Assembly: GCF_044647545.1 (NCBI RefSeq) | Contig: NZ_CP172818.1 | Length of the DNA stretch: 64,000 nucleotides | Origin: Escherichia coli | Lineage (GTDB): Bacteria; Pseudomonadota; Gammaproteobacteria; Enterobacterales; Enterobacteriaceae | Strand: one strand, 5' to 3' | Part shown: piece after piece, positions 15,995-26,244 of the stretch | How positions within the stretch are numbered: position 1 is the stretch's first letter | Layout: every line of letters begins with the position of its first letter | Translations under genes and position numbers: made by a program | Notes under the pieces: generated by a model | What the model saw: only the letters and a program-made list of their open reading frames with translations | Databases searched by the model: none | What the model was told of the DNA's origin: nothing

Positions 15995-16076
15995 TCGGGC
16001 GGATAAGGCGTTTTTGCCTCATCCGCCGCTCTGTACACAATGCCTGATGCGACGCTGGTGCGTCTTATCATACCTA
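15995..16076. repeat. REP elements (two units) downstream of proX
   Basis: ttcgggcggataaggcg...catccgccg and gcctgatgcgacgctggtgcgtcttatca palindromes. Confidence 0.6.
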
Positions 16077-22671: not shown

Positions 22672-22744
22672 GAAAGACGCGCATTTGTTATCATCATCCC
22701 TGAATTCAGAGATGAAATTTTGGCCACTCACGAGTGGCCTTTTT
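22672..22744 (+). ncRNA. micA: MicA (SraD) Hfq-dependent small RNA
   Basis: gaaagacgcgcatttgttatcatcatccctgaattcagagatgaaattttggccactcacgagtggcctttt matches my recollection of the MicA sequence, with its own terminator hairpin ggccactc-acg-agtggcc + TTTT. Confidence 0.93.
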
Positions 22745-25373: not shown

Positions 25374-25512
25374 GGTCTTCTCGCAAGTCGAAAAATATGA
25401 CGCTACTTTAGCGTAATTGCTTGATTTTGTCGCTGATGGCGAAGGAGAAGAAAATTCAGGAAATGGATAAAGTAGTTATTTAGAAATGAGATATTTTTGA
25501 AGGAAATTTTTT

Positions 25513-25538
25513 GGAGAAGATGGTGCATCCGGGAGGAT
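25513..25538 (-). repeat. 26-nt direct repeat of the argQ 3' end region (truncated extra tRNA-Arg unit)
   Basis: ggagaagatggtgcatccgggaggat at 25513-25538 is identical to 25645-25670, which covers the 3' end of argQ. Confidence 0.7.
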
Positions 25539-25652
25539 GACTCACTGGCGTTCGCCCTTCGGGCCGTTGCTGGCCGGCGTTATCCTCCCTGGTGCCTGCG
25601 GTTAATACCGCTACCTCTTCGATATCTTCATTGCTGAAGGTTACGGAGAAGA

Positions 25653-25729
25653 TGGTGCATCCGGGAGGATTCGAACCTCCGACCGCTCGGTTCGTAGCCG
25701 AGTACTCTATCCAGCTGAGCTACGGATGC
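25653..25729 (-). tRNA. argQ: tRNA-Arg (anticodon ACG)
   Basis: Reverse complement is GCATCCGTAGCTCAGCTGGATAGAGTACTCGGCTACGAACCGAGCGGTCGGAGGTTCGAATCCTCCCGGATGCACCA (77 nt, CCA encoded). Confidence 0.95.
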
Positions 25730-25792: not shown

Positions 25793-25869
25793 TGGTGCAT
25801 CCGGGAGGATTCGAACCTCCGACCGCTCGGTTCGTAGCCGAGTACTCTATCCAGCTGAGCTACGGATGC
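25793..25869 (-). tRNA. argZ: tRNA-Arg (anticodon ACG)
   Basis: Identical 77-nt tRNA-Arg copy. Confidence 0.95.
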
Positions 25870-25931: not shown

Positions 25932-26008
25932 TGGTGCATCCGGGAGGATTCGAACCTCCGACCGCTCGGTTCGTAGCCGAGTACTCTATCCAGCTGAGCT
26001 ACGGATGC
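25932..26008 (-). tRNA. argY: tRNA-Arg (anticodon ACG)
   Basis: Identical 77-nt tRNA-Arg copy. Confidence 0.95.
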
Positions 26009-26071: not shown

Positions 26072-26148
26072 TGGTGCATCCGGGAGGATTCGAACCTCCG
26101 ACCGCTCGGTTCGTAGCCGAGTACTCTATCCAGCTGAGCTACGGATGC
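26072..26148 (-). tRNA. argV: tRNA-Arg (anticodon ACG)
   Basis: Identical 77-nt tRNA-Arg copy. Confidence 0.95.
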
Positions 26149-26151
26149 AAA

Positions 26152-26244
26152 TGGCGGTGAGGCGGGGATTCGAACCCCGGATGCAGCTTTTGACCGCATA
26201 CTCCCTTAGCAGGGGAGCGCCTTCAGCCTCTCGGCCACCTCACC
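26152..26244 (-). tRNA. serV: tRNA-Ser (anticodon GCU), long variable arm
   Basis: Reverse complement is GGTGAGGTGGCCGAGAGGCTGAAGGCGCTCCCCTGCTAAGGGAGTATGCGGTCAAAAGCTGCATCCGGGGTTCGAATCCCCGCCTCACCGCCA (93 nt). Confidence 0.95.

Follow-up and report, generated by a model that had tools for sequence, protein, structure and literature searches.

Sequence comparison places the partial tRNA-Arg copy downstream of argQ in Escherichia coli among the tRNA-linked repeats, as an ortholog of K-12 raQ

What is the partial copy of a tRNA-Arg 3' end that follows argQ in an Escherichia coli chromosome: the footprint of an integrated phage or island, a decayed tRNA gene, or an element in its own right? The question is raised by a stretch of 64,000 nt (hereafter the window, at its full length of 64 kb), in which the region at 25.3-26.4 kb corresponds to the yqaB / serV-argV-argY-argZ-argQ / csrA neighbourhood, all on the minus strand. 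ARAGORN and Rfam identify there four tRNA-Arg(ACG) genes and one tRNA-Ser(GCU), with no fifth Arg gene, in agreement with the initial annotation, which had counted only four intact Arg genes. The Arg genes are parted by plain 62-63-nt spacers, and no internal tRNA-linked repeat (TLR) is present between them in this strain. The 26-mer GGAGAAGATGGTGCATCCGGGAGGAT had been described as a direct repeat, and exact copies are indeed found in the window at 25513-25538 and 25645-25670, where chance would provide none (0 matches in 100 dinucleotide-preserving shuffles). Read on the tRNA strand, the repeat consists of the last 18 nt of tRNA-Arg(ACG), AUCCUCCCGGAUGCACCA, followed by the 8-nt trailer UCUUCUCC, and weaker copies with three mismatches are located at the ends of argZ and argY. 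The tRNA-Arg 3'-end copies are spaced by 132, 140, 139 and 140 nt, and the partial copy is therefore in register with the array; the anatomy first proposed, a truncated extra unit of the Arg array (a partial tandem unit) with the tRNA 3' end alone, holds. Between the two 26-nt copies lie 106 bp. The inverted repeat reported for this region also exists, although its right arm, ATCCTCCC, lies at 25582-25589 and not at 25593-25600, and the repeat is longer than claimed, extending over 17 nt (25525-25541 against 25579-25595) with 82% complementarity. The features of the locus are the following.

25432-25451, minus strand: trailer motif, third copy, RNA UCUUCUCCUUCGCCAUCAGC, with 80% identity to the opening 20 nt of the unit (direct repeat)
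25513-25538, minus strand: direct repeat copy 1, AUCCUCCCGGAUGCACCA plus UCUUCUCC (exact match)
25521-25652, minus strand: complete TLR unit of 132 nt, from the first base after the argQ CCA to its own ...GGAUGCACCA end (K-12 comparison and repeat register)
25521-25597, minus strand: TLR body, with closing stem, core hairpins and tRNA-Arg 3' end (covariance model R1)
25525-25541, minus strand: closing stem, 3' arm, GUCAUCCUCCCGGAUGC, with the same sequence as the 3' strands of the tRNA-Arg T-stem and acceptor stem
25579-25595, minus strand: 5' arm of the closing stem, RNA GCACCAGGGAGGAUAAC (inverted repeat; paired in the minimum free energy (MFE) and centroid structures)
25598-25651, minus strand: 5' half of the unit, with trailer-like start UCUUCUCC and hairpins A and B (whole-unit MFE)
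25598-25611, minus strand: hairpin B (whole-unit MFE; compensatory changes in all 4 pairs)
25626-25639, minus strand: hairpin A (whole-unit MFE)
25645-25670, minus strand: direct repeat copy 2, inside and just past argQ (exact match; ARAGORN tRNA coordinates)
25653-25729, minus strand: argQ, the final tRNA-Arg(ACG) gene in the operon, from which the repeated 3' end derives (ARAGORN; Rfam tRNA, 67.1 bits)
25793-25869, minus strand: argZ (ARAGORN)
25932-26008, minus strand: argY (ARAGORN)
26072-26148, minus strand: argV (ARAGORN)
26152-26244, minus strand: serV (ARAGORN)

The additional trailer motif (UCUUCUCC...) at 25432-25451 lies about 62 nt downstream of the CCA of the unit and may be what remains of the beginning of another unit. 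A weak terminator-like hairpin, ACGCUAAAGUAGCGU with CAUAUUUUUC behind it, is found at 25400-25414 on the minus strand, a short distance 5' of the yqaB start codon; a terminator scan returned no other such site between argQ and yqaB, and transcription of the tRNA operon may end here. Elsewhere in the window, Rfam models locate the MicA sRNA in the luxS-gshA spacer (22672-22743, plus strand, 83.9 bits, at gathering level) and naRNA4/CssrE at 15997-16074 (plus strand, 60.0 bits, just over the cutoff of 59.5).

TLRs were first described by Egan and Landy in 1978 and catalogued by Rudd in 1999 (as cited in PMC8144298). [quoted passage not shown] The delta-22-TLR strain is listed with the entry "(argY/Z/Q, raQ/Z/V)", for which the deletion starts ~134 nt beyond argQ; the same list contains rtT and rtV1-3 of the tyrT operon, rpK (proK), rsW' and rsX1-4, as well as five repeats in the lysT operon, rIV and rrA/B/F (PMC8144298). 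Since a strain lacking all 22 TLRs is listed, these repeats are dispensable in the laboratory; they have no known function, and the claim of a stringent-response role for RtT was retracted in 1994 (PMC8144298).

The element of the window lies directly 3' of a tRNA gene, on the minus strand like all five tRNA genes, and its last 18 nt are the 3' end of the upstream gene, with an exact match that extends 8 nt into the trailer. Comparison with K-12 gives 94.0% identity (125/133) to the unit located 3' of argQ, with an identical downstream flank, and this unit is the catalogued member raQ (raQ/Z/V are listed in PMC8144298). Moreover, its core is common to the TLRs of other operons, namely tyrT and proK, as detected with reciprocal models. 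No ARAGORN or RF00005 call was obtained at 25500-25652, and no tpr-like or meaningful ORF was found in the unit. On the basis of these sequence comparisons, the element is the ortholog of K-12 raQ, a catalogued and already known TLR, and not the scar of a phage or island integration. We regard as highly probable the whole account developed here, in which raQ is co-transcribed with the tRNAs, has its ends cut by tRNA enzymes, belongs to a set of units whose copy number is driven by recombination, and is represented in this strain by a possibly weakened allele.

The Arg-type covariance model R1, which contains Arg units only, has a sole match in the 64-kb window, at 25521-25597, with 70.9 bits (E 7e-16). 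The same model recovers all four RtT units of tyrT at 31.5-32.2 bits (E ~6e-6 to 9e-6), with hairpins H1-H3 in register, and the proK unit at 43.1 bits (E 4e-10). In the reciprocal direction, the Rfam RtT model (RF00391) aligns over its full length with the K-12 Arg units at 31, 29.2 and 22.8 bits, below the cutoff of 45, and a K-12 Arg unit reached 33.5 bits (E 2.7e-5) in a small search. None of ~50 Arg units in 19 loci attains the gathering threshold of this family (45 bits), and the window copy has no match to it even at E<=10. The Arg-type unit is a relative of RF00391 that lies outside the family as curated, and because they fall below the Rfam threshold the Arg-type TLRs are left unannotated by PGAP.

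The K-12 tyrT locus consists of tyrT, RtT, tyrV and then three RtT units (133-137 bits), and each tyrT unit ends with AAUCCUUCCCCCACCACCA, with which the 5' arm GGGGAAGGAU pairs. Similarly to the Arg units, the units of the tyrT-tyrV operon occur between and after tRNA genes, vary in copy number and carry the last 19 nt of the cognate tRNA, and the core shared with RtT RNA (rttR, RF00391), AACGUUGC..GCAACGGCCCGAAGGGCGAG..CGAGUAAUCC, is homologous as judged by reciprocal covariance-model detection. The Arg form is nevertheless short, with a body of ~78 nt against ~120 nt, as it lacks ~45 nt between GGAU and AACG; it ends in the tRNA-Arg 3' end where RtT ends in that of tRNA-Tyr; its 5' arm pairs with the whole acceptor strand, forming 13 bp instead of 10 bp; and it has no tpr-like ORF, scores below threshold in Rfam and is not annotated by PGAP. 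The proK TLR, rpK, has the same core and ends with AAUCCUCUAUCACCGACCA, the last 19 nt of tRNA-Pro, accompanied by a duplicated trailer; in contrast to the Arg form, rpK is a long form, is annotated by PGAP as RtT sRNA, and follows an intrinsic terminator that is duplicated with it. A cognate rule thus applies to the 3' ends, the Tyr and Pro units each closing with the last 19 nt of their own tRNA, and the Tyr and Pro repeats start at the same point of the T-loop as the Arg repeat. In E. coli CKJ_1000_3.1 (L127 1348-1640, eptB-proK-dppA), the proK trailer and intrinsic terminator are repeated exactly behind the proK TLR, and the duplication thus covers ~58 nt, from the T-loop through the terminator. 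Units of the tyrT type were found at 1-14 places per genome in 4741 of 5426 genomes (L126 380-1340 being one such locus), and 18 of these places are on plasmids, which is unexpected for a repeat of chromosomal tRNA operons.

The rrA, rrB and rrF repeats, which follow 5S rRNA genes, belong to the same named family and share the 18-bp repeat of the upstream gene's 3' end; they are transcribed by read-through and processed (PMC8144298). In contrast to raQ, they follow rRNA genes, and they bind Hfq and CsrA in vitro, whereas the 19 TLRs of tRNA operons have scores <0.01 in a CsrA-binder predictor (PMC8144298). A link between raQ and the neighbouring csrA through GGA motifs was considered and rejected, as the GGA is paired in the closing stem and the CsrA-binder scores are those just mentioned. 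In Actinobacillus, RtT-family RNAs encoded beside tRNA-Asn and tRNA-Lys genes have been seen on Northern blots (PMC4986893); the literature was also searched for the expression or processing of the Arg-operon units, including transcripts of the argQ/yqaB spacer, and nothing was found on these.

The structure of the Arg-type units was analysed on 99 distinct units (alignment A1) and on their bodies (alignment A2). The body is ~87% identical per column across three bacterial families, a value that refers to the core outside the tRNA-derived 19 nt, and the 5' half is highly variable. The initial annotation had described the sequence of the body as unrelated and GC-rich, which is correct relative to tRNA-Arg but not as a description of filler, since it is the conserved TLR core. 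In the tRNA sense, the sequence of the canonical body is GCACCAGGGAGGAU-AA-[CGUUGC UUUA GCAACG]-G from the 5' part of the closing stem to H1 and continues, from the G that follows H1, as G-[CCC GAA GGG]-[C GA GCC GCAA GGC GA G]-UA-AUCCUCCCGGAUGC-ACCA. In the canonical fold, which is cloverleaf-like, a 13-bp closing stem with two bulged A encloses the hairpins H1, H2 and H3, the latter carrying a tandem G.A motif. This structure was specified in advance and tested column by column against slid partners and shuffles; RNAalifold, run on a MAFFT alignment whose gaps ignore structure, had for that reason returned no more than H1 and portions of H3.

Across the 99 units 93.4% of the cells are paired, against 29-47% when the partners are slid by 1-3 columns. 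Double-sided changes are found in 112 cells, against 14-35 in the slid controls and 37.8 in shuffles, and the covariation score is 0.149, against at most 0.055, a score reached by 0 of 500 shuffles; these covariation counts are inflated by shared ancestry, the units being paralogs that evolve in concert. H1 occurs by genus as CGUUGC/GCAACG, CACUGC/GCAGUG, CAUCGC/GCGAUG or CGCUGC/GCAGCG, and the inner stem of H3 as GGC/GCC, GCC/GGC, GUC/GAC or AC/GU, with at least nine stem-loop solutions. The closing pair of H3 changes from C-G to U-A in 11 units, about a third of the H3 hairpins have a GNRA or UUCG tetraloop when read in the tRNA sense, and only then, and in hairpin B compensatory changes affect four of its four pairs. 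No covariation was detected in the closing stem across the 99 units, its 3' strand being held constant as a copy of the tRNA end. For the internal body of K-12, the MFE structure (-39.2 kcal/mol) is the proposed fold, which accounts for 50% of the ensemble (z -5.2), and the median z over 89 bodies is -3.5; the 5' halves are modestly more structured than plain spacers (z -1.7 against -1.1, p 0.013). A strand test, with 95 G.U against 74 A.C, was not significant (p 0.12), and by this measure selection on RNA as opposed to DNA is not established. The comparative analysis shows the body to be under selection for a specific fold. In the MFE structure of the whole K-12 unit, the ACC of the 3' ACCA is paired with a GGU that lies immediately 5' of hairpin B, a predicted pairing that would sequester the CCA end; the GGU (A1 columns 42-47) is common in many genera, although not in all.

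Two differences from K-12, UU-to-CC and the deletion of 1 nt, affect the 5' strand of H1 in the window allele and break this hairpin. The body of the window copy keeps 22 of the 26 pairs, including the closing stem and H2, its interior fold is ill-defined, and its z is -3.1. Judged from this predicted fold, the window copy may be a weakened allele that has lost the inner hairpin H1.

The junction varies within E. coli. A 441-nt junction probe matches 5425 of 5426 complete genomes, with a coverage of at least 80% in 4943 of them, and about 480 of the 5425 show a coverage of 76% and a span of 309 bp against 441, exactly 132 bp less; in strain 20.1 (L001), argQ is joined directly to the yqaB-proximal flank, at the repeat. 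The weakest junction match corresponds to an IS1/IS3 insertion and not to an island. In E. coli KTa005 (L003 4099-5985), an IS3-family element nested in an IS1 lies between yqaB and raQ; this is the sole insertion at this junction in the sampled genomes, and the raV unit of the same locus ends in ...GGAUGCAUCA where ...CACCA is usual. The comparison of this junction across E. coli, suggested earlier as a way to find an island or prophage between the repeats, yielded the 132-bp difference and this one IS insertion, and no integrase element.

In K-12, the tRNA-Arg genes are spaced by 275, 139 and 275 bp and each long spacer holds a further unit, which gives three units, after argV, argZ and argQ (raV, raZ and raQ); the window strain differs in having raQ alone, without raZ or raV. 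A unit-specific 116-nt probe detects 1-6 copies (median 2) in 5159 of 5426 genomes, all of them chromosomal, and no annotated feature is present at any of the sampled matches. In E. coli E700025 (L002 1862-1962), the argZ-argQ spacer is a hybrid in which ~38 nt of a TLR 5' half are fused to an ordinary spacer, with no body; from its sequence it looks like an internal deletion of raZ or a recombinant derivative. The comparison of genomes shows that units are gained and lost as whole modules, precisely at the repeated tRNA 3' ends and trailers.

Beyond E. coli, the serV-argV junction was scanned in species-representative genomes, which gave 120 loci. Outside the tRNA genes themselves, the tRNA-Arg 3' end recurs 102 times in these loci, and ~95 of these copies belong to complete units of 127-138 nt that sit between Arg genes or after the last one, always in the orientation of the tRNA genes; Salmonella houtenae, for example, has one internal and one distal unit. 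A profile of the core alone has 123 matches in 58 loci, nearly all of them followed by a tRNA-Arg 3' end, and these matches span Enterobacteriaceae, Erwiniaceae and Pectobacteriaceae. Most of the Enterobacteriaceae genera in the sample carry the unit, as do some Erwinia, Pantoea, Brenneria and Pectobacterium; it is absent from the sampled arrays of Providencia, Xenorhabdus, Moellerella, Edwardsiella, Dickeya, Tatumella, Rosenbergiella and Aeromonadales. Within genera its presence is patchy and losses are frequent. In Pantoea ananatis (L112 4996-5527) and Erwinia phyllosphaerae (L122 5897-6165), Arg-type units follow one another directly, without an intervening tRNA gene, which is also seen at tyrT. 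The tRNA-derived 3' end is missing altogether from some terminal copies, for example L112 4874-4925 and L021 3745-3796.

Several other readings of raQ have to be weighed against these data. That the partial copy is the remnant or the empty attachment site of a prophage or island targeting tRNA-Arg from the T-loop to the 3' end, and thus the displaced original 3' end, is exceedingly improbable, although the arrangement resembles one: the intact tRNA is followed, after 106 bp, by a direct repeat running from the T-loop past the CCA into the trailer, and the Tyr and Pro repeats begin at that same point. In K-12, att duplications of tRNA 3' ends presumably include the partial copies of argW and argU at prophage ends, and they share with raQ an intact tRNA followed by a direct repeat of its 3' end. 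Such duplications, however, bracket kilobases of integrase-encoding DNA, whereas the interval at raQ is a 106-bp non-coding core with no integrase near it, and this conserved, structured core is also found at other tRNA operons. Since units occur between tRNA genes and in tandem, in K-12 and many genera, and at three tRNA operons with a conserved core, a decayed island is not what they represent. In addition, a partial attP-like match was found in 0 of 50,697 phage records, the phage matches being to whole phage tRNA-Arg genes; of 73 species loci whose sequence extends far enough, 58 have a yqaB homolog 108-1588 nt (median 219) past the array and no island there, and the 15 loci without a nearby yqaB are from taxa that also lack the unit; and the low-coverage classes among the 5425 E. 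coli genomes come down to the 132-bp deletion and the one IS insertion. With a conserved unit in many genera, no attP, no island and yqaB adjacent, the att footprint or empty or ancestral att site that had been suggested is abandoned. The suggestion was to be given up if all relatives carried the same structure without insertion and the segment folded as a conserved terminator or processing element, and this is essentially what is seen, since a conserved structured element is carried by the relatives. Somewhat less remote, but still distinctly unlikely, is a neutrally decaying pseudo-tRNA, that is, a tandem Arg duplicate that lost its body and whose 3' end is kept by gene conversion without selection. 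The broken H1 of the window copy would fit such a process, as would the truncated or degenerate distal copies (for example in L040, L072, L041, L112 and L021), the frequent loss of units and the lack of a known function for TLRs (PMC8144298). A core with ~87% identity per column over three families next to a variable 5' half would not be expected from it, nor would compensatory changes that preserve H1, H3 and hairpin B, nor the persistence of the core at the Tyr and Pro operons; moreover, distal and internal full-length copies are equally conserved (no significant difference in decay, p 0.54 and 0.24). The earlier alternative of a decayed tRNA copy is too simple: the body is the conserved core of the TLR/RtT family, with a covariation-supported structure.

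The hairpin could also serve the serV-argVYZQ operon as its intrinsic terminator, or stabilise its 3' end purely in cis; it is indeed the final structured element ahead of yqaB, its GC-rich stem is strong, and the Rfam type given to RtT is 'Cis-reg'. This is very unlikely, as the stem is followed by ACCAUCUUCUCCAAAAAA with no U-tract, identical units stand between tRNA genes that must be co-transcribed, and the proK unit follows a canonical terminator and brings a second terminator copy with it; the possibility, raised earlier, that the segment is the operon terminator also finds no support in the terminator scan, which returned no site in the unit. Equally slight is the chance that the hairpins act in DNA and not in RNA, for example as a recombination or replication signal that drives the rearrangement of the array. 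The highly dynamic copy number and the non-significant asymmetry of G.U over A.C (p 0.12) would be compatible with such a signal, but the orientation is always that of the tRNA genes, R1 scores 70.9 bits in the tRNA sense against 12.6 on the other strand, the GNRA and UUCG loops of about a third of the H3 hairpins appear in the tRNA sense only, and members of the family are documented RNAs (PMC4986893, PMC8144298).

For raQ as a TLR, the following scheme is proposed. The 132-nt module directly after argQ comprises a spacer-like 5' half with two small hairpins, and then a body in which a 5' arm and the last 18-19 nt of a tRNA-Arg are paired, with a three-hairpin TLR core between the two arms. 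Co-transcription of the raQ unit with the tRNAs is inferred from the sequence, because no terminator-like site lies between argQ and the unit and because the tRNAs downstream of internal copies could not be made unless those copies were transcribed. The 5' arm GCACCAGGGAGGAUAAC resembles the acceptor 5' strand of tRNA-Arg fused to the 5' strand of its T-stem, and the closing stem thereby reproduces the acceptor/T-stem coaxial helix. Because the closing stem, the discriminator, the CCA and the trailer are those of tRNA-Arg, the ends of the unit are probably cut by tRNA-maturation enzymes: RNase E and 3' exonucleases would probably form the 3' end, and the minihelix-like stem may be cut by RNase P on its 5' side. 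Cutting would release an RNA of ~78 nt, predicted to start at the G of GCACCAGG and to end at CCA. The repeated tRNA 3' ends and trailers would allow unequal homologous recombination or slippage, through which copy number would shift, the 26-nt exact repeat being a likely substrate.

A bolder extension, which we consider unlikely, is that the Arg-type TLR body is a selected tRNA-shaped RNA of ~78 nt, excised by RNase P and the tRNA 3' machinery and acting in trans, for instance as a mimic of the tRNA-Arg acceptor end; the RNA would then be shaped, according to the predicted fold, as a 13-bp acceptor/T-like stem with three hairpins and a free ACCA-3'. If this were true, the mimic would be non-chargeable and would titrate an enzyme or sensor that reads tRNA 3' ends, each TLR would be a 'hitch-hiker' that takes the acceptor end of its host tRNA for processing and stabilisation, and a family unexplained since 1978 would at last have a function.

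The comparative structure and the identification of the Arg-type annotation gap are a modest addition to a known element. A direct repeat of a tRNA 3' end beside an enterobacterial tRNA array can be a TLR and need not be an integration scar. Annotation pipelines recognise the tyrT and proK forms only, as "RtT sRNA", and the Arg forms, present in ~95% of E. coli genomes, are unannotated; as these forms are both sub-threshold and unannotated, their rediscovery will continue. The fold, its reach over three families and the cognate 3'-end rule seen for Arg, Tyr and Pro provide testable hypotheses about these repeats and leave the classification of the locus unchanged.
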